DNA of 64,000 bases, from contig OY970280.1 of assembly GCA_963715865.1 (NCBI GenBank), positions 1,760,001 to 1,824,000 of the forward strand. The letters run 5' to 3'. This DNA is from Candidatus Bathyarchaeota archaeon (lineage in GTDB: Archaea; Thermoproteota; Bathyarchaeia; Bathyarchaeales; Bathycorpusculaceae). The notes under the pieces were generated by a model that had not been told where the DNA came from, made no database searches, and saw only the letters and a list, made by a program, of their open reading frames with translations. This document shows, one piece after another, positions 36,151 to 53,477 of this stretch. A program made the translations under genes and the position numbers. How positions within the stretch are numbered: the stretch's first letter is position 1; every line of letters starts with the position of its first letter.

Positions 36151-36441
36151 GTGAACAATTTGGAAACAAAAAAAGAACATGTACAAAAAACTGAGAAAGT
36201 TATCCTAAACGCTTCAAAAGCAGACTGCACAGGATGCAGCGTTTGTTCTGATTTTAAAGCAGACAGCCTTCGACATGCAGTCGCTAGGTTAAACGGAGTC
36301 TCAAAAGTCAAAGTTGACGAGATAACCGGCAAGGTCACAATAGAATACGACACACAAAAAATCAGTTTCTCCAAGATCACTGAACGCATTGAAAAACTCG
36401 GCTATCAAGTTGAAGTATTATCAAGAGAAGAAATCCAATGA
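36151..36441 (+). CDS. Heavy-metal-associated (HMA) domain chaperone
   Basis: CTGCSVC metal motif, LNGVSKVKVD...VTIEYD and IEKLGY ferredoxin-like fold pattern. Confidence 0.8.
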   Translation: MNNLETKKEHVQKTEKVILNASKADCTGCSVCSDFKADSLRHAVARLNGVSKVKVDEITGKVTIEYDTQKISFSKITERIEKLGYQVEVLSREEIQ

Positions 36442-38363
36442 GAGAACATTTCAAAGGCGTAATTCTAGTAATTTTACTTGGGCTATTCGCTTTAGCAGGC
36501 GCCCTAATATCTGGAACTCAAGTAGCTTACGCGCATGAAATTAGCATTATTTTAACTTTAATCGCCGTTGCCTTGGGCTACCGCATCTATTTGCATGGCA
36601 TTCGATCTCTGCTTCACGGGAACGTTACCGCCCAATTGTTCGCAACCATTGCCATCTTCATTTCAGTAATAGCTGGTCTCGTCTCACCTTCAGCATCAGC
36701 TACTGGCACAGCAGAAGCAGTTGGTTACCTCACAGCATCAGCTATAGTGGCTTTCATTATACTCGCAGGTATGACGCTTGAAGAATACATTATCCATAGA
36801 ACAAGAGGCGCCCTCGAGAAGCTCATAAACATGAGCCCCAACACCGCTCGCATACGTCGAGACAGTGCAGAAGTTGAAGTACCCATAGACGAGGTTAAAG
36901 TAGGCGAAATCGTCTTAGTCAAACCAGGCGACAAAATACCAGTTGACGGAACAGTAATTTCTGGACACAGCACCATCAACCAAGCAACGATAACGGGTGA
37001 ATCAATTCCTGTAGAAAAGACAGTAGGCGACCGCACATTTGCTGGCACACTCAATGAGCATGGGGCTTTAGAAATTAAAGTCGAAAAAATCGCTGAGGAC
37101 ACTACACTTGCCCACCTCATTCAATTAGTCGAAGAAGCTCAAGAGAAAAAAGCACCCATACAGAACGTTGCTGACAGATTTACCACTTACTTCTTGCCAA
37201 TCATGGCAGTTTTGTCATCTTCTGTCTTTGCAGCCAGTTATTTCACACTTGGTTTTGAAGTTGCACTCGCTAGAACCGTAACTGTTCTCTTAGTCGCATG
37301 TCCTTGCGCGCTATCAATAGCTGTTCCCGTCGCTGTAGCCGCAACCATTGGTAATGCCAGCATGAACGCCATAATAATCAAAGGCGGCACACACATCGAA
37401 AAGCTAAAAGACGTTACGCTGGTCGCATTTGACAAAACTGGCACGTTAACCATCGGCGAACCCGGGGTTGTCGAGATCAAAACTTTCGGTAATTACTCTG
37501 AAGCAGATACAATTAAGTATGCAGCAATTGCTGAGAAATTTTCAGAACACCCCTTATCCAAAGCCATCATCACTAAGGCAACTGAGATGAGCTTGAAAAT
37601 TCCTGACCCCACAGATTTCAAAACTATTCCTGGGCAAGGCGTGGATGCCCATTACGGAAATAAACATATCCTAATTGGAAGAAAGATGATGGAAACGGAG
37701 TTTTCAGAAGAAGAGAATCAATTGATGAGCATGGTCGAAAGCGAGGGAAAAACAGCTATCCCCGTAGCACTAGACGGAAATGTTATCGGCGTAGTCATTG
37801 TGGCTGACACAGTCAGGGAGAATTCTTTGGAAGCCATACAGAGGCTCAAGCGTTTAGGTGTCAAAACTGCTATGTTGACTGGCGATAATGCGCGGACTGC
37901 TAAATCTATCGCTGAGCAGATTGGTGTTGATGAGTACCATGCTGAGCTTTTGCCTGAACAGAAAGTTGCGGTTATTGGAGAACTGAAAAAAGGCAATGTT
38001 GTTGCGATGGTTGGTGACGGTGTGAATGATGCTCCTGCGTTAGCTAATTCGGATGTTGGGTTTGCGATGGGCGCGGCAGGCAGCGATGTAGCCATTGAGA
38101 CTGCTGACGTGGCTCTGCTTGGCGACGACTTAACAAAGGTTGAATACGCGATCAGCCTAAGTCGGAAGGCATTTAACAGAATGAAGGGGAACATAGTTTA
38201 CGCCTTTATCTGGAACATTGTCGCATTGAGCTTAGCCGCCTTCGGTATCTTGAATCCAGTCTTAGCTGTTGTTCTTGCAGAAGCCGGATGCATTTCAGTT
38301 GTAATCAATTCTGCTTTACTGTTGCTGAGTAAGCCAAAGCCGCTAGCCAAGATTAAGGGCTAA
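36438..38363 (+). CDS. Heavy-metal P1B-type ATPase without a fused N-terminal metal-binding domain
   Basis: TGES, CPC, DKTGT, SEHPL, MLTGD and GDGVNDAPAL. Confidence 0.95.
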   Translation: MREHFKGVILVILLGLFALAGALISGTQVAYAHEISIILTLIAVALGYRIYLHGIRSLLHGNVTAQLFATIAIFISVIAGLVSPSASATGTAEAVGYLTASAIVAFIILAGMTLEEYIIHRTRGALEKLINMSPNTARIRRDSAEVEVPIDEVKVGEIVLVKPGDKIPVDGTVISGHSTINQATITGESIPVEKTVGDRTFAGTLNEHGALEIKVEKIAEDTTLAHLIQLVEEAQEKKAPIQNVADRFTTYFLPIMAVLSSSVFAASYFTLGFEVALARTVTVLLVACPCALSIAVPVAVAATIGNASMNAIIIKGGTHIEKLKDVTLVAFDKTGTLTIGEPGVVEIKTFGNYSEADTIKYAAIAEKFSEHPLSKAIITKATEMSLKIPDPTDFKTIPGQGVDAHYGNKHILIGRKMMETEFSEEENQLMSMVESEGKTAIPVALDGNVIGVVIVADTVRENSLEAIQRLKRLGVKTAMLTGDNARTAKSIAEQIGVDEYHAELLPEQKVAVIGELKKGNVVAMVGDGVNDAPALANSDVGFAMGAAGSDVAIETADVALLGDDLTKVEYAISLSRKAFNRMKGNIVYAFIWNIVALSLAAFGILNPVLAVVLAEAGCISVVINSALLLLSKPKPLAKIKG

Positions 38364-38893: not shown

Positions 38894-39607
38894 CTACTTT
38901 CTAATCCGCTCAATCTTCTCTACACTGCCAACTGATCCAACGTAAGCAATGTCAGTTAACCCGACAAAAAAACCTGTTTCCACAACGCCAGGAATCATCT
39001 TCAGCTTTGCATCTAACTCTCCAGGTTTAGCTATCTCACCAAAATTTGCGTCTAAAATGGCGTTTCCATTATCAGTTATTACTGGACCAAGCTTGCCTTT
39101 GCCTTCCCGCAAAACAGGCTTTCCACCAACAGCAATGATTTTTCGTTTCACAAGCGAAATAGCAAAAGGCAAAACTTCTATGGGCACTGACTGATTGTTT
39201 TCACCTAACACCTTCACCTTTTTCTGCTGGTCAGCAATTATAATGTTAAGTTTAGAGGCTGCAGCAACAATTTTTTCTCTCGCCAGCGCTGCACCCATAC
39301 CTTTGATCAGATTTAATTCAGGGGTTATTTGATCTGCCCCATCAATCGTCACATTTATTTCTGGATGCTCATCCAGCGTTGTTATCGGAATTCCACAATC
39401 AACAGCTAACAAGAAAGCTTGATAAGAAGTGGGAACACCCATGATGTGCAGTTTTTCGCGTTTCATTCTTTCTCCTAGTGCTTCTATGGCAAACGCAGCT
39501 GTGCTTCCGCTTCCTAAACCCACAATAAAGCCGTCCTCAACATGTTTAACCGCTTCTAAGGCTGCTTTTCGTTTTGCCTCTTGAATTGGCTCAAGGTTAG
39601 CTTTCAA
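38894..39607 (-). CDS. rpiA: Ribose-5-phosphate isomerase A
   Basis: GLGSGST, DGADQ, KGMGAALAREK, TDNGN and GVVETG. Confidence 0.97.
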   Translation of the reverse strand: MKANLEPIQEAKRKAALEAVKHVEDGFIVGLGSGSTAAFAIEALGERMKREKLHIMGVPTSYQAFLLAVDCGIPITTLDEHPEINVTIDGADQITPELNLIKGMGAALAREKIVAAASKLNIIIADQQKKVKVLGENNQSVPIEVLPFAISLVKRKIIAVGGKPVLREGKGKLGPVITDNGNAILDANFGEIAKPGELDAKLKMIPGVVETGFFVGLTDIAYVGSVGSVEKIERIRK

Positions 39608-40328
39608 TTTCCATTTGCCCCAGCCTATCTAAAACCTTCTCAACTTCACTTCTAATGGATTCTATTCTTTTTTCAGCTTCAGTTTTAGCGTCAGGTTTTT
39701 CTTCTGGCAGTTTCCGTTTCTTTTTCGCTTTCTCCTCGCCTGCTTCTTCCTCTTCCGCCTCTTCCTCAATTTCTTCTATCTGCGTTGCTGGCATTTGCGT
39801 GGGTAATTTTACAGGTATCTCTTTTATCGGTTTAACGTCAATTTTTGTTCTAAGCTCTTCAACCTTTGATGTTAATTCTCCGAAGCGTTCACTGAAAAGC
39901 TTCATTAAATCTTCCTGCATACCTTCAAGATCATGCAGTGCAACTATTGTTTCATCTTTCGCGATGGATTCTTTAATAGACATCATTCTTGCCTTGTAGG
40001 TTCCTGCAAGTTTTTCTCTTTCTTGCTCTGAAATTTTGCCTTCCGCTTGGGCTTCATACAAGCGGCGTAGTGCATCGCCTAAAATCTCTCTTTCTAAATC
40101 TAGGATTCGCAGTTCGTCTTTCGCGTTAAAAGCCGTTGTTGTCTGGACGCTTTTAGAAATTTTAAAGGGTAAACCAGCATACTCAAGGCTTGAATCACCT
40201 ATTTTTTGAGGCTTTTTCTGCGGAGCTTTTCTGCCCAGCCTTCGCATGGCAGAAATAATTATTCCGCAGGCGATCATTATCACTACCGCAACTGCAATGA
40301 CTGTTAAGGGGTCATCATACCAAGCCAT
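39597..40328 (-). CDS. Membrane-anchored coiled-coil protein
   Basis: N-terminal TM helix, long heptad helices, and an acidic EEEAEEEE tract followed by a basic KAKKKRK tract. Confidence 0.75.
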   Translation of the reverse strand: MAWYDDPLTVIAVAVVIMIACGIIISAMRRLGRKAPQKKPQKIGDSSLEYAGLPFKISKSVQTTTAFNAKDELRILDLEREILGDALRRLYEAQAEGKISEQEREKLAGTYKARMMSIKESIAKDETIVALHDLEGMQEDLMKLFSERFGELTSKVEELRTKIDVKPIKEIPVKLPTQMPATQIEEIEEEAEEEEAGEEKAKKKRKLPEEKPDAKTEAEKRIESIRSEVEKVLDRLGQMEIES

Positions 40329-40428: not shown

Positions 40429-40977
40429 CTATGCTGTTTTTACTTTCTTAACCTGCGCCTTCTCAAGAGCTCCAACAATAGGCAACGTAACGACAACGCC
40501 GATTATTCCGCCAAGAACTGTCCAGCCGCCCCAAACAGTAAGTACAACCATGAGCGGAAGTTTGAGGATGACGATTCCGTTTACAAGAGCAGCAACATAG
40601 GCGCAAACCATCGAGGCTAAAACAGCAACTGCAATGTTAACTGGCTTCGTGTTTATTCTGTGATGATTAACTAATAGCACTAAATCAAACAGTATCGCTG
40701 CAGGTACAAACCCCAAGACTGGAAGCGGGCCACCAGCAAGCAAAGCAATCGCAGAACCTATTATACCAACAGCTGACGCAGCACCATACTGGCCAGTAGC
40801 CCAAGTAACAAGAAGAAGCATAAAAAAAATTATTACGCCATGAACTACTGGTAAACCAAACAGGCTAAAGCCAAGCGGCGCCACTGTTAGGTTCAAAGCT
40901 ACCCATAACGCGCTGAAAATGCTGATTAATGCAATGTTGACTGTGAAGCGGTTTTGGTTTGTTTGTGGTTCAATCAT
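40429..40977 (-). CDS. Integral membrane protein, ECF-transporter S-component-like
   Basis: About 180 aa with 5-6 hydrophobic helices; G..P...GFVPAAILFDL pattern. Confidence 0.55.
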   Translation of the reverse strand: MIEPQTNQNRFTVNIALISIFSALWVALNLTVAPLGFSLFGLPVVHGVIIFFMLLLVTWATGQYGAASAVGIIGSAIALLAGGPLPVLGFVPAAILFDLVLLVNHHRINTKPVNIAVAVLASMVCAYVAALVNGIVILKLPLMVVLTVWGGWTVLGGIIGVVVTLPIVGALEKAQVKKVKTA

Positions 40978-41142
40978 GCAGTAACACTTCTTTACAGTTT
41001 AGTAACACTGCAAGCATAAAAATCTTCTCATAACTTCAACTTAGCGCTATTATCAATAAATAGTTAACCGAAGAGTTATTCTGACGCAACCAATTTGCTC
41101 AGAAAATCCTGATGCAAATCAGCACAGGTGTGGCTAAGGGCT

Positions 41143-41532
41143 ATGTTTAAATTGGAAACTGTTACACCAAACCTAATTGTGAAAGCCATAACAATACTTG
41201 GCGCCATTGCGGTTACAGTATTATTCTTCTTTGCAATAGTGTTCGCTCTTGCCGCTTCAGTTCAAGCGACAGCAACGAGGCTTGTTACAAGTGGTTTGCT
41301 TTTCATTATTGGCCTTGCCGTAATCGTGGGCATCTATTATGTTACGCGCAAACCAAAAACAGTTATCCAGCGATTAGAAGTTTCAGGACAAATGAAAGCT
41401 GAAGCAATCAAGTGCCCAAACTGTTCAGCGTCAATAGATGCTAACCAAATAAAAATTGTGTCAGGCGTGCCCTATGTTAAATGCCCCTATTGCGGTACCA
41501 CGTTTGAGGTTACTGAGGAACCAAAATGGTGA
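41143..41532 (+). CDS. Two-TM membrane protein with a C-terminal zinc ribbon
   Basis: Two hydrophobic helices then CPNC...CPYC; its stop overlaps the next gene's start. Confidence 0.8.
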   Translation: MFKLETVTPNLIVKAITILGAIAVTVLFFFAIVFALAASVQATATRLVTSGLLFIIGLAVIVGIYYVTRKPKTVIQRLEVSGQMKAEAIKCPNCSASIDANQIKIVSGVPYVKCPYCGTTFEVTEEPKW

Positions 41533-43152
41533 AGCGAATTTGCGTCTTGACGGTTATTCTTGCCTTAATTATTTCACTGACAGCTATGAGCTTAGCAAAT
41601 GCGCAGGAAAGAGTCTACAGTTTTGACCACCAATGGGCACAGATATTCATAAACCAAGATGGAACAATCGACTTAACCTATAATCTGACCCTAACGCTAC
41701 ACTCTGGAACTGATATACATGCGATAGATATAGGGCAACCTAAAGGGGACTTTACTATAGGCCAAGCTGTTGACCAATATGGACACCAACTTCAAACATC
41801 AGATGATAGTAGTGGAAGCGACTACAGAGTCCGAGTAACCCTAAACCAGCCTCTAACAGCTGGAAACACCATTTGGTTCACCCTAACAACAAATGTTGCA
41901 GGCATGATAAGCAATGATACGCAGAACCCAGGCAATTTGGGCATGGAGTTTGCTCCTGAATGGATGTCAGTGCCAATCAACGATGTGCGGGTACAAATTG
42001 TTCTTCCACTCGGCGTTGCCATAAGCGACGTGAAAACTACACAAAACTTCTACAACAGCACCTCGTTAGTGGAAGGAAGATTGGCGGTTTACTGGGAAAA
42101 ACCGGTTCTACAGCCTAATGAGCAATTCTTGGTAGGTGTTTCTTTTCCAGCCAAATACTTGCCCAATTATTATCCTTCTCAAGTAGGTGGTCTCGAAGAA
42201 TTGGAAATTTCGATATTACTTTTTGGATTAGCGGCATTTGCTATTTTTGTGATCGGATTCATCGTTTTCAAGGTGCAGAAAAAGCACTTACTTAACACCG
42301 AAAATCAGCATGGAAACCTTAGGGATTAAACGCGGCTTAACAGCCGTTGAAGCATCTTACCTTCTTGATTTGAAGCCAACACAGATAGTAACTGAAATTC
42401 TCTATAGTCTTTTGCAGAAAAGGGCTGTTTGGGCTGAAGAAACCAAACCTGCGCTTAAACTTCGTGTGCTTCCACCTTATGAGAACAAAACAGGTAGCGC
42501 AGAGAATCCTCTAAGGTATTACGAGATTGATTTCCTTAACTCGCTAAAGGCTAATGGCACGCTCGATGAGGAGAAACTTGCGCACACAATCATGTTTCTG
42601 CGTGACACCGTAGAGCAGAAAATGCACGGTTACAGCCGAAAGGACACCGTTGACTACTACCGAAAAATCGTAAGCCAAGCATGGACACAAGTGGAACAAG
42701 CTGGAACTGTCGAGTTAGCATCAAACGCTTATGATGAGCAACTGCTCTGGCTTATGCTTGACCCAAATCAACGGTCACGCACAGAAACAGTCTTCAAAGA
42801 CAGGGTTTTCCAGCCAAATCCACTTTGGTTCTGGTGGTGGTATGGCTATTCACAGTATAATCCACATCCCACATACAAACCAAACGTTGAGGCACCAGCG
42901 CAATCAGGCAAACCACCAGCTATTCCAGGAGCTGAATTCGCAAACAACATAGCAACTGCGGTAGAGAACACTTCAAACAATATAGTATTAAGCTTAGAAA
43001 AATTCGCTAATGCCATCGTTCCGGCACCACCGAAAGCATCTCATGAACCAGCACATCACGGAGCTGACTGCGTCTGTGCGTGTGCGGCTTGTGCCTGTGC
43101 TTGCGCTTGTGTTTCATGCGCTTGTGCATGTGCAGGTGGAGGTGTTCGTTAG
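41526..43152 (+). pseudogene. Membrane protein (DUF2207-like extracellular domain, TM helix, cytoplasmic domain) with a C-terminal (Cys-Ala)n tail; split by a +1 frameshift near 42279-42283
   Basis: The ORFs 41526-42329 and 42310-43152 join after the TM helix as ...FKVQK-STYLTPKISMETLGIKRGLTAVEA. Span 1627 nt = 542 codons + 1 nt. The protein ends CVCACAACACACACVSCACACAGGGVR*. Confidence 0.8.
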
Positions 43153-43154
43153 AA

Positions 43155-44502
43155 ATGAGTTTTCTGAAAAATATTTTTGTTAAGCCAAGGGTTCCTCAAG
43201 GACGTTATACTTATCGTGGTAAGGACAAGTTTGCAGGCATGTCCCTTCAACTGAGAGTAGAGCAGTCTGGACAAGGCGTTATGGTGATTAACGCCAACAC
43301 GGTTCTTCATTTAAACCACACTGCAACGGCATTTGCATATTTTTTTATGCAGGGTTTGCCCCAAAAACAGGTTTTAACTAAAATTCGCCGAATGTATCAT
43401 GTCAACGTTAAAACTGCTAAAGCTGATTATGAAAAATTAACCTATACGGTTAGTACCTTGGCGCAAACGGAAAAAGTCGACCCAGTATCTTATCTTGAAA
43501 TTGAAAAGGAAGAACCATTCTCTTACCAGTATTCAGCGCCCTTACGCATGGATTTAGCTTTGACTTTCAGATGCCAAAACGACTGCGTTCACTGTTACGC
43601 TGGAGGACCGCACGAGACACCGGAACTAACAACGGCGCAGTGGAAAAGTGTCATCGATAAACTCAGTGAAATCGGCGTTTTCATCTTAACCTTCACAGGC
43701 GGCGAACCCACATTGCGCGAGGACTTGCCAGAACTGTTACTGTACGCTCAAGCCAAAGGCATGGTTACAGGGCTGATAACTAACGGGCGAAAACTGAAGG
43801 ATAAACCCTATGTTGATGTACTTGAAAAATCTGGTTTAGATTTTGTGCAAGTAACACTGGAATCTCACAAACCGGAAGTTCATGATTTAATGACTAGTGA
43901 AAAGGGCAGTTGGAGTGAAACGGTTGCTGGAATAAGAAATGCTGTGCAATCGCAAATTTACGTTTCAACCAACACTACACTAAGCAAACATAATGCTGAT
44001 GATTTTCTAACAACCATCGATTTCATTAAAGGACTTGATGTGGACGCTTTCGGTTGCAACAGCCTCATTTACTCAGGCAAAGCACCTGACGTAAGCCAAG
44101 AGTTTGCGCTGTCCTTCGAAGAGTTGAATTTGCTTTTGCCGAAAATCCGCGACAAAGCCCACATGCTTGGCTTAAAGTTCCTATGGTACACGCCGACCCA
44201 GTACTGCCATTTTGACCCTGTTACAGCTGGGTTTAGGAGTTAAAACCTGCACTGCCGCAATGATAAACGCTTGCGTGGGACCAAACGGCGACGTTTACCC
44301 ATGCCAAAGCTACTTTGAAAGCCTAGGCAACATTCTCACAGATTCTTGGGAGAAGATTTGGGGCAACCCTTTGGCAGTAAAACTGCGCAGCAGAGCATAC
44401 GTTGAGCAAAAATGCAAGGATTGCCCTCAACTCCAAGTTTGCGGCGGAGGATGCCCCTTGGAACTGCAAAACAAAGAGCACCTTTGTAGCCAAACAGGAT
44501 AA
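43155..44502 (+). pseudogene. PqqD/RRE-like domain + radical SAM + SPASM enzyme; split by a +1 frameshift at about 44221-44223
   Basis: RRE-like segment (VLHLNHTA...RMYHVNVKTAKADY), CQNDCVHC SAM motif, GGEP, then after the shift QLGLGVKTCTAA..CVGPNGDVYPC...GNI...CKDC...CGGGCP. Span 1348 nt = 449 codons + 1 nt. Confidence 0.88.
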
Positions 44503-44551
44503 TTTATCTTTAGCAAGCTACCTTTTTCTCTTTAGGCAGCACGACGCATTT

Positions 44552-45802
44552 GTGAGCTTAGAGAGGAATGTTGCTATAGAGAAAAATAGGCTTGTAGTTT
44601 TCGACGTTGAAGGAGTGCTTATTCCAAAGAATCGCTTCTTGTTTGAAGTAGGGAAAAGTTTAGGTTTCGTTAGGTTGGTTCGGCTTCTTTTTTTCGGTTT
44701 TCTCTATGAATCAGGTATTTTAAAGTTAGAATCGGCATTAAAGCATATTTTTAAAGAGTTAAAAGGAACAAAGCCTGAAACGTTAATGTTTATTTTCGGA
44801 AAAATTTCTTCAACATCTTTTCTGCAAAATATTTTTTCTCAAATTAAAATGAGGAATTGTAAGATTGCTTTGATTAGTTCAGGGTTGCCAACGGTTATTG
44901 TTAAAAAGTTAGCTGCAACAGTTGGTGCAGAATACGCTTATGGCGTTGAAGTTGAAACCAAAGATGGCAAGTTAACAGGTGAAATCTGGGGAGACGCGAT
45001 TTGTCCAGATGGTAAACTGAAAATTTTGAGCCAAATTTTAACTGCTGAAGGCTTGAATTTGAGCGATTGCATCGTTGTTGCTGATGATAGAAATAACCGT
45101 TGCGTTTTCATGCCCGGAATGCTAAAAATTGGTTTTAATCCTGATTTTATTTTGCGAGTTAAAGCTGACAAAGTAGTAACTGGCAAACTTTCAGGAATTT
45201 TGCCCATTATTGATGGGAAACCGCTTAAACGTTCTTTTCCGTCTACGAACGATTTTGTAAGAGAAGACATCCATGCTGCTGGATTTTTTATGCCAGTTAT
45301 CGCTAGTTTAATAGGTGTCCCCATAGTTGGCGCGTTAATTTTCACGATAGCATTGCTATATACTATATCTGAACTTTTGCGTTTAGAAGGAAGAGATTTA
45401 CCTCTAATTTCGGCGATTACGCGTCATGCTGCATCTCAATCAGAACTACATGGCTTCGTAGCAGCTCCGCTATACTTTGCTTTTGGCATTTTGTTAACTT
45501 TGCTTGTGTTTCCAGCTCCTGCAAGTTATGCTGCGATTGCTATGTTTTGCTTAGGCGATAGCGTCGCTTCGCTTTTCGGAGGTCTTATTTCTACATCTTT
45601 ACCGTTTAACAAGGGGAAAACTTGGGAGGGTTCACTGGCCGGGTTCTTTTTTGCGTTTTTAGCTGGCACGTTTTTTGTTTCGCCAGTGCTGGCTCTGATT
45701 GGGGCGGCGATTGCGATGACTATTGAGGTTCTTCCGTTGCCTGTGAATGATAATGTGCTAGTGCCAGTAATTACAGGAGTAGCGTTAACGCTACTGGTCT
45801 AA
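44552..45802 (+). CDS. HAD (SerB-like) phosphatase fused to a dolichol/phytol-kinase (CTP-transferase family) membrane domain
   Basis: VVFDVEGVL, LISSG, K and ADD HAD motifs, then REDIH, LGDSVASLFG, NKGKTWEGS and NDNVLVP polyprenol-kinase motifs. Start uncertain; GTG at 44552 chosen. Confidence 0.8.
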   Translation: MSLERNVAIEKNRLVVFDVEGVLIPKNRFLFEVGKSLGFVRLVRLLFFGFLYESGILKLESALKHIFKELKGTKPETLMFIFGKISSTSFLQNIFSQIKMRNCKIALISSGLPTVIVKKLAATVGAEYAYGVEVETKDGKLTGEIWGDAICPDGKLKILSQILTAEGLNLSDCIVVADDRNNRCVFMPGMLKIGFNPDFILRVKADKVVTGKLSGILPIIDGKPLKRSFPSTNDFVREDIHAAGFFMPVIASLIGVPIVGALIFTIALLYTISELLRLEGRDLPLISAITRHAASQSELHGFVAAPLYFAFGILLTLLVFPAPASYAAIAMFCLGDSVASLFGGLISTSLPFNKGKTWEGSLAGFFFAFLAGTFFVSPVLALIGAAIAMTIEVLPLPVNDNVLVPVITGVALTLLV

Positions 45803-46586: not shown

Positions 46587-47267
46587 TTATTGCTCCATAA
46601 CTTCAGCAGGCATGTAATCGTAAACGATGCCTTTTTGCATGGCTCTTTTAAGGTAGGCTTCCGGGTCGATTTCTTGGACTTTTGCGCGATCAACATCGAT
46701 GATGTAGATTTCTTGTATGCGTGCATTTCGGATTTCTTCAAGGGCAACTGGCGGTTTCTGGTAGTATGCGTCACAGAGCTTTTTTATCTGCATTATTTCT
46801 TGGTCTGTTCGGTTTCTTGGCGGCTTAGCCAGCGCACGCGGAAAGGGCAGAATGTAGTGGGGTGGTACGCCTAGCGCGAATTTTCCTGCGAAACTGCTGT
46901 ATCTTATAATTTTGCTTGCTAGTCGTGCAGAAGTGTAAGTTAATGGTGCCAAAGCGTTTTCCGGAGGAATGAAACCTGTTTCTACTTCAACGATTAGGTT
47001 TCCATAGCCTTTTATGGCGTATAAATCGCAGGTTAAAATTTCGTTTAACGGGTATTCAATTTGCACTTCGCAGCCTTTTTGGATGAGGTATTTGGCGCAT
47101 ACAAGTTCCATTACTGAATGGTTAATTTTTACAATGTTTTCTTTTTGTAGTTTTATCAGCCAATCTTTTAGCATGTTAAGTTTGTTTTCAACTTCTTTTT
47201 CAGAACCCTTTGTTAGCCTACATAAGAGAAGAGTTAAATCTTGTTCGAATTTTTGCTTATTACTCAT
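46587..47267 (-). CDS. Conserved archaeal hypothetical protein, PD-(D/E)xK-like
   Basis: IEYPL...CDLYAIK...IVEVETG resembles a restriction-endonuclease-fold core. Confidence 0.55.
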   Translation of the reverse strand: MSNKQKFEQDLTLLLCRLTKGSEKEVENKLNMLKDWLIKLQKENIVKINHSVMELVCAKYLIQKGCEVQIEYPLNEILTCDLYAIKGYGNLIVEVETGFIPPENALAPLTYTSARLASKIIRYSSFAGKFALGVPPHYILPFPRALAKPPRNRTDQEIMQIKKLCDAYYQKPPVALEEIRNARIQEIYIIDVDRAKVQEIDPEAYLKRAMQKGIVYDYMPAEVMEQ

Positions 47268-47716: not shown

Positions 47717-47902
47717 TTAAGGTTTCAACGAAGAGAGAACAAGCCTTGTAGAGTTAACATCAACTTCTACGATCTTGCAGTTTTTGAATTCTTTGGCTTC
47801 GCCTAAAATATTCTTAACTGTCACGTTGTCTCCTTCGATTTTAGCGTAAATAACATCCTTGAATTGCACTTTTCCATTGAAGATTACGTTGAATTCACAC
47901 AT
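47717..47902 (-). CDS. CooT-family nickel-binding protein
   Basis: ATG at 47902: MCEFNV...KDVIYAKIEGDNVTVKNILGEAKEF...IVEVD; the Met-Cys-Glu N-terminus is typical of CooT. Confidence 0.8.
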   Translation of the reverse strand: MCEFNVIFNGKVQFKDVIYAKIEGDNVTVKNILGEAKEFKNCKIVEVDVNSTRLVLSSLKP

Positions 47903-48145
47903 AATGTTTTCACAGCTATGAAAAAAGTGATTCTGGGTTATAAGGGCTTTTATCAAAGACAACTAACTACTCACGGAAAAATAGTGCTCTTAAGAGTCTT
48001 TAGCCTCCTTATTTAAAAGCAAGCTACCATCTTATCTTCCAACCTCTATCTTCTACTCTTTCTAGGAGAGATTAGGCGTAGCATCGTTTTTTGGCATGTT
48101 AAATATTCACTATTAGCTGTAAACAACTAAAACAGACACCGTAAA

Positions 48146-51943: not shown

Positions 51944-52443
51944 ACATGAAAATCAAGGGCACCGCAATAAAATTCGGAAACAACATCGACACAGACGTTA
52001 TCTTGCCTGGAAAATACCTAATCATAGTTGACCCTTACGAGTTAGCAAAACATGCCCTAGAGAGCTTAGACCCAGCGTTTCCTGAGAAAGCAAAAAAAGG
52101 CGTAATCTTAGTAGGCGGCAAAAACTTCGGATGCGGCTCAAGCCGAGAACAAGCGCCTTTAGCCTTAAAGTATGCAGGCGTGAAATGCGTGTTAGCCGAA
52201 TCCTTCGCGCGCATCTTCTTCCGAAACGCCATAAACATCGGCTTACCAGTAATTGAGTGCAAAGGCATATCCGCCGCGGTTGAAACAGGCGACGAATTAG
52301 CTGTGGACTTTGAAGCTGGCAAGATAGAAAACGTTTCTAAAGGCAAAAGCTTTCAAGTGAACAAGCTTCCACCGTTTATCTTAGAGATATTGTCGGATGG
52401 AGGATTAATCGAAAACTTACGAAGGAGAATGAACAAAAAATGA
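51940..52443 (+). CDS. leuD: 3-isopropylmalate dehydratase small subunit
   Basis: NIDTDVILP, NFGCGSSREQA and SFARIFFRN. Confidence 0.93.
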   Translation: MNMKIKGTAIKFGNNIDTDVILPGKYLIIVDPYELAKHALESLDPAFPEKAKKGVILVGGKNFGCGSSREQAPLALKYAGVKCVLAESFARIFFRNAINIGLPVIECKGISAAVETGDELAVDFEAGKIENVSKGKSFQVNKLPPFILEILSDGGLIENLRRRMNKK

Positions 52444-53477
52444 CAGAGTACAAAATATCTCTCATTCCAGGTGACGGAATCGGACCAGAATTAACCGAAG
52501 CCACCCTGAAAGTTCTAGAATCAGCACAGAAAAAATTCGGGCTAAATCTGAAAATCATTGAGGCAGAAGCAGGCGACGCAACCTTAGCTAAAAGAGGCGC
52601 CGCTTTACCCGAAGACACCGTGCAAAAAATTAAGGACTCTCACGTTTGCTTAAAGGGACCTGTAGGCGAAAGTGCAGCCGATGTCATAGTGAAGTTACGT
52701 TTAATGTTTGATCTTTACGCTAATTTGCGTCCACTGAAGGCTTATCCTGCGGTTGCTGTGGCTAGGCCAGACATTGACATGATGTTTGTTAGGGAGAACA
52801 CTGAGGACGTTTACAAAGGCTTAGAATTCACCATAGGTAACGACACAACCTTATGCCTTAGAGTTATTACCCGAAGTAATTGTGAACGCATAGCCAAAAA
52901 AGCCTTCGAAATTGCACGCTTACGCAATGGCAAAAAGAAAGTAACCGCCATACACAAAGCCAACGTTATGCGCGTGACCGACGGCTTATTCGCAAGCATA
53001 TGCCGTGAAACAGCAAAACAGTACCCAGACATCGCTTTCAACGAGTTATATGTTGATGCAGCGTCGATGCGTCTAATAAAAGAGCCACAAGAATTCGACG
53101 TCCTGTGCACCTGCAACATGTTCGGCGACATCCTCTCAGACGAAGCAGCTCAACTAATTGGCGGATTAGGCATGGCTCCAGGCGCAAACATAGGTGACAA
53201 CTTTGCACTCTTCGAACCCATACACGGTTCAGCACCAAACAGGGCTGGAAAACACACGGCAAACCCAATCTCCATGATACTAAGCGCAAAAATGATGCTG
53301 GACTGGCTAGGCGAGAAATACAACGACAAGAAATGCACCAACGCTGGCAAAGCAATAGAAAACGGAGTAATACAAGCGTTACGTAACGGTCAAACTGTTC
53401 CAGACTGCGGCGGCAACACCACGACCGTGGGAATGGCAGAAGCCATTGCTGCAGCCATAACAGTGAAAACTGGTTGA
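52440..53477 (+). CDS. leuB: 3-isopropylmalate dehydrogenase
   Basis: PGDGIGPE, RENTED, HKANVM, NMFGDILSD and EPIHGSAP; operon context. Confidence 0.9.
   Translation: MTEYKISLIPGDGIGPELTEATLKVLESAQKKFGLNLKIIEAEAGDATLAKRGAALPEDTVQKIKDSHVCLKGPVGESAADVIVKLRLMFDLYANLRPLKAYPAVAVARPDIDMMFVRENTEDVYKGLEFTIGNDTTLCLRVITRSNCERIAKKAFEIARLRNGKKKVTAIHKANVMRVTDGLFASICRETAKQYPDIAFNELYVDAASMRLIKEPQEFDVLCTCNMFGDILSDEAAQLIGGLGMAPGANIGDNFALFEPIHGSAPNRAGKHTANPISMILSAKMMLDWLGEKYNDKKCTNAGKAIENGVIQALRNGQTVPDCGGNTTTVGMAEAIAAAITVKTG

Follow-up and report, generated by a model that had tools for sequence, protein, structure and literature searches.

A Cys-Ala tail on a DUF2207-like membrane protein as the proposed substrate of an adjacent RRE-radical SAM-SPASM enzyme in Bathyarchaeia and other phyla

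What does a peptide-modifying type of radical S-adenosylmethionine (SAM) enzyme act upon when its gene directly follows that of a large membrane protein ending in alternating cysteines and alanines? This question is raised by a cassette in a 64,000-nucleotide stretch of the genome of a Candidatus Bathyarchaeota archaeon (GenBank assembly GCA_963715865.1, contig OY970280.1, forward strand, positions 1,760,001 to 1,824,000), referred to here as the window. The list of open reading frames (ORFs) shows three consecutive genes on the + strand, at 41128-44502. They encode a zinc-ribbon protein, a DUF2207-like membrane protein and a radical SAM-SPASM enzyme with an N-terminal domain of the RRE type, i.e., the recognition element of enzymes for peptides made on the ribosome and modified after translation (RiPPs). 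We propose that the enzyme probably modifies the cytoplasmic tail of the full-length membrane protein, through docking by the RRE and radical chemistry; that the products are thioether crosslinks is less certain. A first-pass annotation had described the three coupled genes, and all of them and their features were recovered where it had placed them. It had also described a membrane protein of ~541 residues. The features and tail of that protein are indeed present, but it does not form one open frame in this genome, and the enzyme is likewise split. The features are listed below with their evidence in brackets, where P0001 is an intact homologue of 541 residues, L001 is a metagenomic contig (94% identical, cassette intact) used as the alignment reference for the frame breaks, and A1, A2 and A3 are alignments of 16 enzyme homologues, 18 Bathyarchaeial membrane proteins and bacterial membrane proteins, respectively.

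41128-41532, + strand: small zinc-ribbon membrane protein with two transmembrane helices (ORF and translation; TIGR02098, 28.9 bits)
41526-42329, + strand: N-terminal part of the DUF2207-like protein, with signal peptide, beta-sandwich ectodomain and single transmembrane helix (ORF; identity to P0001; structure model)
42277, + strand: frame break 1, an extra A in GTGCAGAAAAAG (alignment to L001; contigs of public sequencing runs)
42253-43152, + strand: C-terminal cytoplasmic part of the membrane protein, with winged-helix-like unit, helical domain, two conserved helices and tail (identity to homologues; model; A2)
42928-43017, + strand: conserved pre-tail segment (PGAEFANNIA..NNIV.N.EKFAN.I), modelled as two helices (A2; A3; model)
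43069-43149, + strand: Cys-Ala tail CVCACAACACACACVSCACACAGGGVR, 10 Cys, proposed substrate (sequence; conservation in homologues; codon counts)
43155-44243, + strand: first part of the enzyme, with RRE-like domain (~43200-43466), CxxxCxxC motif (~43572-43595) and TIM-barrel core (PF04055; A1; model)
44221, + strand: frame break 2, an extra T (CCTGTTACAG, compared with CCTGTACAG in relatives) (alignment to L001; contigs of public runs)
44212-44502, + strand: the enzyme's SPASM domain, read in the +1 frame, conserved cysteines present (PF13186; TIGR04085; A1)

The genes are closely packed. The stop codon of the zinc-ribbon gene overlaps the start of the membrane-protein gene, and the TAG stop of the tail (43150-43152) is separated by only 2 nt from the ATG of the enzyme gene at 43155. 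The zinc-ribbon ORF encodes 134 residues, comprising two hydrophobic helices and then a C-terminal CPNC...CPYC ribbon, with EEPKW as its last residues; its match to the MJ0042-type zinc finger model TIGR02098 exceeds the cut-off of 20.9 bits. The true start of this gene is probably internal, at ATG 41143 or later. In what follows, intact homologues such as P0001 stand in for the broken window genes.

The tail is under strong selection at the protein level. Positions 43069-43131 encode 10 cysteines in 21 residues, in the arrangement CxCxC-xx-CACACAC-VS-CACACA-GGG that characterizes the Bathyarchaeial tails. This sequence is almost unchanged in 120 homologues (81-98% identity), and it is the best-conserved segment of the 18 proteins in A2, which extend down to 37% overall identity; both its Cys and its Ala columns are invariant in that alignment. 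The codons, by comparison, are scrambled. Both Cys codons and all four Ala codons are used in the window tail alone, and pairwise comparison of 21 tails yielded 2600 synonymous versus 255 nonsynonymous codon differences. The nonsynonymous differences are confined to four positions, while all Ala and both Cys codons occur at the invariant ones. Tandem Repeats Finder detected a weak 6-nt periodicity (score 38-52, 65-71% matches). Synonymous variation had been read in the first-pass annotation as a mark of selection on the protein, and these counts bear it out. A DNA microsatellite was considered as well and is ruled out by the weak repeat scores, the synonymous scrambling and the conserved peptide.

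Presence and absence of the tail protein and the enzyme go together. Of 201 genomes sampled from the class Bathyarchaeia, 44 were found to encode the membrane protein and 43 the orthologous enzyme, with the two genes adjacent on one strand in 42. The three singletons (G136, G139 and G003) all lie at contig ends, such that the sample contains no singleton that can be judged. Joint loss was also seen, with both genes decayed in one genome (G008) and the entire segment missing from another (G208), so that the earlier expectation of joint occurrence and joint loss held. The zinc-ribbon gene is directly upstream of the tail-protein gene in 19 of the 20 Bathyarchaeial loci that were fetched, L022 being the twentieth. 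Gene order is likewise kept in 19 of these 20 loci, in which the membrane proteins share 37-79% identity, and the genes flanking the cassette differ outside close relatives. No methyltransferase gene and no second full-length radical-SAM-like gene was detected in 22 Bathyarchaeial loci; one locus (L093) contains a second, 88-residue fragment belonging to the enzyme cluster.

The same pairing extends to other phyla. An exhaustive profile search widened the family considerably, adding members of 28-49% identity whose tails are shorter and mainly of the form CACACACAGCACACAGGGR. In a cross-phylum scan restricted to one genome per species, 80 tail-protein loci were obtained, which by record title come from Anaerolineae (including Ornatilinea apprima P3M-1), Heimdall- and Hodarchaeota, Methanomassiliicoccales, Planctomycetota, Myxococcota-like bacteria, Aminicenantes and others. 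An enzyme match lay within 10 kb of the tail-protein gene in 75 of the 80, usually directly downstream, and 74 of these were clear orthologues; the match near L048 was weak (31% identity). Whole-genome searches were performed on five genomes, i.e., four without a nearby enzyme and that of L048, and all five have an orthologue elsewhere, which in two of them adjoins a second tail protein. L044, in which no enzyme was seen nearby, is a 3.3-kb contig ending 89 bases past the tail. In the subset of loci with the tail variant CACACAGCACACACAGGGR, the enzyme gene is upstream instead. The module can be recognized by a tail of the form (CA)n...CACACAGGG on a DUF2207-like protein with an adjacent orthologue of the RRE-radical SAM-SPASM enzyme, and the window carries both, in a 10-Cys variant. 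The zinc-ribbon gene is clustered with them in 74 of 92 loci overall.

Variation among these cassettes is of several kinds. The Bathyarchaeial tail corresponds to the common bacterial tail with an extra CxCxC-xx unit at its front; the Bathyarchaeial form has the longest tail (10 Cys) and the smallest cassette. In nine loci (L068, L069, L071, L072, L074, L088, L091, L098 and L104), the zinc-ribbon gene is followed by the enzyme gene and, several kb downstream, by the tail-protein gene. Loci of this kind belong to Planctomycetota, Myxococcota-like and some other bacteria and carry the tail variant CACA(CA)GCACACACAGGGR, indicating that tail variant and cassette layout change together. Many Chloroflexota loci add to the pair a second radical-SAM-like gene and a methyltransferase gene, as exemplified by L049 (13126-15043), which encodes a second radical-SAM-like protein (partial PF04055, E 2.9e-10) and a class I methyltransferase (PF08241, E 2.7e-19). 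A methyltransferase also accompanies the pair in Methanomassiliicoccales and Asgard loci. Bacterial cassettes sometimes add a small PAS-like protein, which is absent from the Bathyarchaeial form, as are both extra enzymes.

The model of P0001 comprises a signal helix (residues 2-21), a confident beta-sandwich ectodomain (30-208) and a transmembrane helix (223-251), followed by a winged-helix-like and helical region, helices at 468-486 and 490-497, and a disordered tail. The basic stretch after the transmembrane helix argues, by the positive-inside rule, for a cytoplasmic tail, as the first-pass annotation had suggested; together with the signal peptide, ectodomain and single transmembrane helix, this topology would place the tail within reach of the radical SAM enzyme. 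Immediately before the tail lies the conserved segment at 42928-43017, with the conserved columns A472, V487 and F493 in A2 and a similar PGxDFA...V..V..F pattern in A3. We regard this segment as a candidate leader-like element for recognition by the RRE.

The assignment of the membrane protein to DUF2207 is by resemblance. PF09972 scored 15.3 bits on P0001 (residues 39-201) against a gathering threshold of 24.4, and did not match the window's own N-terminal half; many close homologues carry a precomputed PF09972 match, and some are named DUF2207 at source. Ordinary DUF2207 proteins end in Gly-rich tails. The DUF2207 protein SMU.243 of Streptococcus mutans has the same layout, i.e., signal peptide, beta-sandwich ectodomain, transmembrane helix, cytoplasmic part and low-complexity C-terminal tail (PMC10457818). 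For the P0001 model (residues 30-250), Foldseek ranked highest ribophorin I/Ost1 of the eukaryotic oligosaccharyltransferase (E 1.4e-10) together with the M1 aminopeptidase N-terminal domain (~208 columns, root-mean-square deviation (rmsd) ~4); the overall template-modelling scores, 0.24-0.29, are low, in keeping with matches that are local.

The enzyme has the architecture of a peptide maturase. In the window, PF04055 matched the first ORF with an E-value of 6e-25, the translation of which contains RCQNDCVHCY, and the three cysteines of the CxxxCxxC motif (C140, C144 and C147) are invariant in A1. The SPASM domain was matched by PF13186 (E 2.3e-11) and by TIGR04085 (53.1 bits, cut-off 27); its cysteines C365, C373, C383, C420, C423, C429 and C433 are invariant and C444 is nearly so, a set appropriate for two auxiliary clusters. 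The enzyme model (predicted template-modelling score 0.78) consists of an N-terminal sheet of three or four strands (residues 16-53), three helices (55-104), a barrel and the SPASM region, and its N-terminal domain was modelled with predicted local distance difference test values of 77-92. In this model, the sheet and three helices have the layout of a RiPP recognition element, the outcome of a fold check that had been set beforehand. The best structural match was to SkfB (Z 24.2, rmsd 5.2, 342 residues aligned, model residues 31-417), and the alignment to SuiB spans model residues 18-436, both matches taking in the RRE regions. SkfB (E 1.5e-26), PqqE and SuiB were also the best matches by sequence among solved structures. 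Against a cut-off of 23.4 bits, PF05402 (PqqD) scored 27.1 on a bacterial homologue, and 23.7 and 21.7 on two from Bathyarchaeia, so that for the PqqD-like N-terminal domain originally noted some members of the family reach the threshold.

This enzyme belongs to no named family, as all of its NCBIfam matches fall far below the family cut-offs. For an intact homologue, the scores and cut-offs were 104/300 for SkfB (TIGR04403), 91/850 for AlbA (NF012164), 89/625 for StsB (NF045574), 117/381 for PqqE (TIGR02109) and 69.6/400 for the ACGX enzyme (TIGR04340), while the SPASM piece encoded in the window scored 39/349 against anSME (TIGR03942). The CrpC-type model TIGR04463 was not among the 25 best NCBIfam matches of the enzyme.

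What, then, is the substrate? No separate precursor was found, in agreement with the first-pass annotation. ORFs of 15-110 residues with at least four Cys between 38 and 48 kb all lie inside or antisense to a larger gene, and no cluster of small conserved ORFs emerged across the 92 loci. Modification of the tail is the simplest account, given that the genes strictly co-occur and are translationally coupled, that the enzyme is of the maturase type and has a domain for binding peptides, and that no other substrate presents itself. The RRE would dock on the conserved helices immediately preceding the tail, and 5'-deoxyadenosyl radical chemistry would then alter the tail in place on the full-length protein. 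The product may contain several intramolecular thioether crosslinks of the sactionine or ranthionine type, each joining a Cys sulfur to an Ala or Gly carbon, and such crosslinking would turn the disordered tail into a rigid knot. Alanine is as invariant as cysteine, which would fit a role for Ala, or for the final Gly residues, as acceptors, or a tight fit of the substrate, and would fit a plain metal site less well.

Another reading is that the tail is itself a RiPP precursor fused to a carrier, to be cut off after modification and freed as a peptide. The leader-like segment, variable linker and Cys core do resemble a precursor layout, and there is a GGG near the end of the tail. Against this, the GGG comes after the Cys core and not before it, the tail is predicted to be cytoplasmic and sits on a membrane protein conserved over its whole length, and the 92 loci have no conserved gene for a protease or an exporter within the cassette or beside it. 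The earlier suggestion that a GG-terminated peptide might be released by proteolysis was therefore not upheld, and we consider a fused precursor very improbable.

An alternative in which the tail is not modified at all is that it constitutes a metal or iron-sulfur site of the metallothionein kind, with the enzyme acting on another substrate or helping to load the cluster. Ten cysteines in CxC spacing make up a classic set of thiolate ligands. Genes for an ArsR-type helix-turn-helix protein, an HMA-domain protein, a heavy-metal P-type ATPase and CooT are also neighbours of the cassette, both here and in closely related genomes (36438-38363 and 47717-47962 in the window; 569-3120 in L001). These metal-related genes occur with the cassette only in this lineage, however, and a metal-resistance link through the neighbouring genes was accordingly rejected. 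The strict invariance of Ala across phyla would not be expected of a simple metal site either, and the enzyme, with its RRE-like domain and peptide-maturase architecture, occurs and is lost jointly with the tail protein. We therefore regard an unmodified metal site as unlikely.

If the enzyme does modify the tail, the chemistry need not be thioether formation, and formylglycine-like or thioaldehyde oxidation, epimerisation, C-methylation or steps towards a new cofactor might be envisaged instead. SPASM enzymes catalyse many reactions, and anSME, PqqE and MftC were among the matches. The methyltransferase and second radical-SAM-like gene of the bacterial and several archaeal cassettes point to further chemistry in those forms. 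The Bathyarchaeial cassette, in contrast, lacks these extra enzymes, the closest solved relative by both sequence and structure is the thioether-forming SkfB, and the cysteines of a CxCxC core have been proven to act as sactionine donors (PMC10288494). Other chemistry is thus quite improbable as an explanation of the tail. We favour thioether formation by analogy, on account of the nearest relative SkfB, the hairpin of StsA, and the precedents of CrpC with CrpA and QhpD with QhpC described below.

Several observations weigh against modification of the tail by the adjacent enzyme. In some bacteria (L040 and L041), the genes for the enzyme and for a tail protein are not linked, and at least one further tail variant (PPSCACACACVSCACACACAGGGGCT) occurs without an adjacent enzyme, on short contigs. 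The PqqD match of the window-type enzyme is weak (13 bits, E 0.13). Runs of Cys-x-Cys are classic metal-thiolate ligands, and the tail could act unmodified. The type of crosslink is argued by analogy. Finally, both genes are interrupted in this genome, and the module may do nothing here. When the enzyme (from A1) was co-folded with the last 87 residues of the membrane protein (from A2), three 4Fe-4S clusters and SAM, the scores were 0.01 and 0.00, a result that weighs neither way.

Several known systems share parts of this one. Sactipeptide and ranthipeptide synthases such as SkfB, AlbA, CteB, PapB and SuiB-type enzymes have the same N-terminal RRE-like domain, radical SAM CxxxCxxC motif and C-terminal auxiliary-cluster domain, and presumably a similarly Cys-rich substrate. 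They differ in acting on short, separate precursors whose products are exported, whereas here the Cys core forms the last 20-27 residues of a membrane protein of ~540 residues. A further system, which we take to pair the radical SAM/SPASM enzyme TIGR04340 with a product ending in Ala-Cys-Gly-type (ACGX) repeats, involves small peptides, and its enzyme model scored far below cut-off here; our literature search on ACGX repeats returned no paper. Closer in some respects is CrpC of Methanococcus voltae, an archaeal RRE-radical SAM-SPASM enzyme that puts ranthionine thioethers on the large, adjacently encoded protein CrpA (PMC13692751, 2026). CrpA likewise combines a leader-like region with a repetitive Cys region, but it is soluble, consists of ten 17-residue repeats with C-x-x-Q/D motifs and has neither a membrane anchor nor a Cys-Ala tail, and CrpC is a member of TIGR04463.

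Two further precedents concern the persistence of the modified protein and the motif. The radical SAM/SPASM enzyme QhpD makes several intramolecular Cys thioethers in QhpC, which stays a functional protein (PMC7876137). QhpC is nonetheless a small soluble enzyme subunit crosslinked to Asp and Glu, without a Cys-Ala repeat or membrane anchor, and the quinohemoprotein amine dehydrogenase system to which the pair belongs includes a protease, an exporter and a flavoprotein. StsB links the CxCxC core of StsA to GxGxG in a hairpin ladder (PMC10288494). This is the nearest published motif to the alternating Cys and Ala/Gly of the tail; StsA differs in having three cysteines, in being a free peptide and in relying on a discrete RRE protein, StsC.

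Searches of Pfam, NCBIfam and a literature library returned no model or paper describing a module of Cys-Ala tail and radical SAM enzyme, and no paper mentioning DUF2207 together with radical SAM, consistent with the initial impression of an uncharacterised system. To our knowledge, nearly all known examples of radical SAM chemistry on peptides concern natural products that are small and secreted, and enzyme-made thioethers on whole proteins have been documented in very few cases (QhpC and, in 2026, CrpA). The broader picture, to which we would give an even chance, is of a widespread and unnamed modification in which the Cys-Ala tail of a signalling-type membrane protein becomes a multiply crosslinked thioether ladder or a cofactor-like structure, spread from Chloroflexota to Bathyarchaeia and Asgard archaea, dispensable, and decaying in this genome. 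If true, proteins would be modified in a way that forms a class of its own, placed on a membrane protein's cytoplasmic tail and shared by many phyla of anaerobic bacteria and archaea, and some of the large DUF2207 family would thereby acquire a function. The Bathyarchaeial form, with three genes and no accessory enzymes, is the simplest and hence a good minimal system, and among the carriers, Ornatilinea apprima P3M-1 at least is recorded under a strain name and not as a metagenome-assembled genome (MAG).

Is the module intact in this organism? One extra base at 42277 splits the membrane protein into the frames 41526-42329 and 42253-43152, and another at 44221 splits the enzyme into 43155-44243 and 44212-44502, whereas in intact relatives the two proteins measure 537-547 and ~448 residues, respectively. 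Both extra bases are missing from every relative examined and, wherever the positions are covered, from contigs of four independent public sequencing runs. Base 42277 is absent from every covering contig of runs X1, X3 and X4, and base 44221 from those of X1, X2 and X3. A third private indel lies close by, the window being short of one G in GGAATGGTTGC at 44569 relative to L001; all covering contigs in three of the four runs have this extra G, which restores the ATG of a downstream HAD-family gene. The exact window sequence was not matched by the public runs screened, the best share of words being 0.32, and no RNA data set was listed for it. Programmed +1 frameshifting, suggested by the +1 direction of both breaks, is unlikely, as relatives lack the extra bases and the two sites share no common signal.

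Members of this genus can do without the cassette. It was found in 4 of 11 further congeneric genomes in the class sample, and in the genome of the nearest species found (G208), ~90 bp (contig C22, L124 16837-16927) replace window positions 40462-44488. This gap removes the whole cassette together with the gene of a 182-residue membrane protein (40429-40977, minus strand), a clean case of presence and absence at a syntenic site. A decayed cassette is found in G008 (L113, G008:C55:48500-53500), a genome of the same family rated 100% complete, in which the membrane protein is reduced to residues 344-513, the enzyme gene is spread over four frames, and no zinc-ribbon gene was detected at the locus. 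Given this patchy presence, the empty site in G208 and the decayed copy in G008, recent inactivation of the module in this genome, with each large gene broken by one base, is somewhat likelier than an error in the consensus, and the cassette appears to be lost as a unit, perhaps here as well.

That the breaks are assembly consensus errors, and the module intact and working in the living organism, nevertheless deserves serious consideration, even if we lean slightly away from it. The genome is a single closed contig of 2.35 Mb, suggesting a long-read assembly, and the broken genes show no further damage: the N-terminal half of the membrane protein is 88% identical to residues 1-257 of P0001 and the C-terminal half 98% identical to intact proteins of 540/541 residues. 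The third private difference of one base, at 44569, is also nearby. The extra bases lie outside long homopolymers, however, and dispensability in the genus speaks for decay. In addition, ~20 kb of flanking sequence compared with L001 and G208 contained no frame break in real genes, which leaves the three private indels clustered within 2.3 kb.

Some further irregularities were noted around the cassette and its relatives. The ORF at 44402-45802 encodes an HAD/SerB-like protein fused to a membrane domain; the missing G removes its in-frame ATG, and the only start from which it stays open is a TTG further upstream, in overlap with the enzyme gene. In the G208 MAG (71% complete; L124/L125, C22), a number of genes with intact counterparts in the window are broken into two or three frames, among them this HAD-fusion gene, a 243-residue gene (39597-40328), a 226-residue gene (46587-47267) and a 378-residue ORF (52341-53474), and this MAG seems to carry many frame errors or pseudogenes. 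Lastly, some database proteins, such as the metagenomic homologues P0349 and P0280, have their tail DNA read in a wrong frame (…LRLRLCSMCLCLRLRFMRLCMC…) or are garbled at their centre, indicating that other assemblies, too, have frame slips within or close to the tail region.

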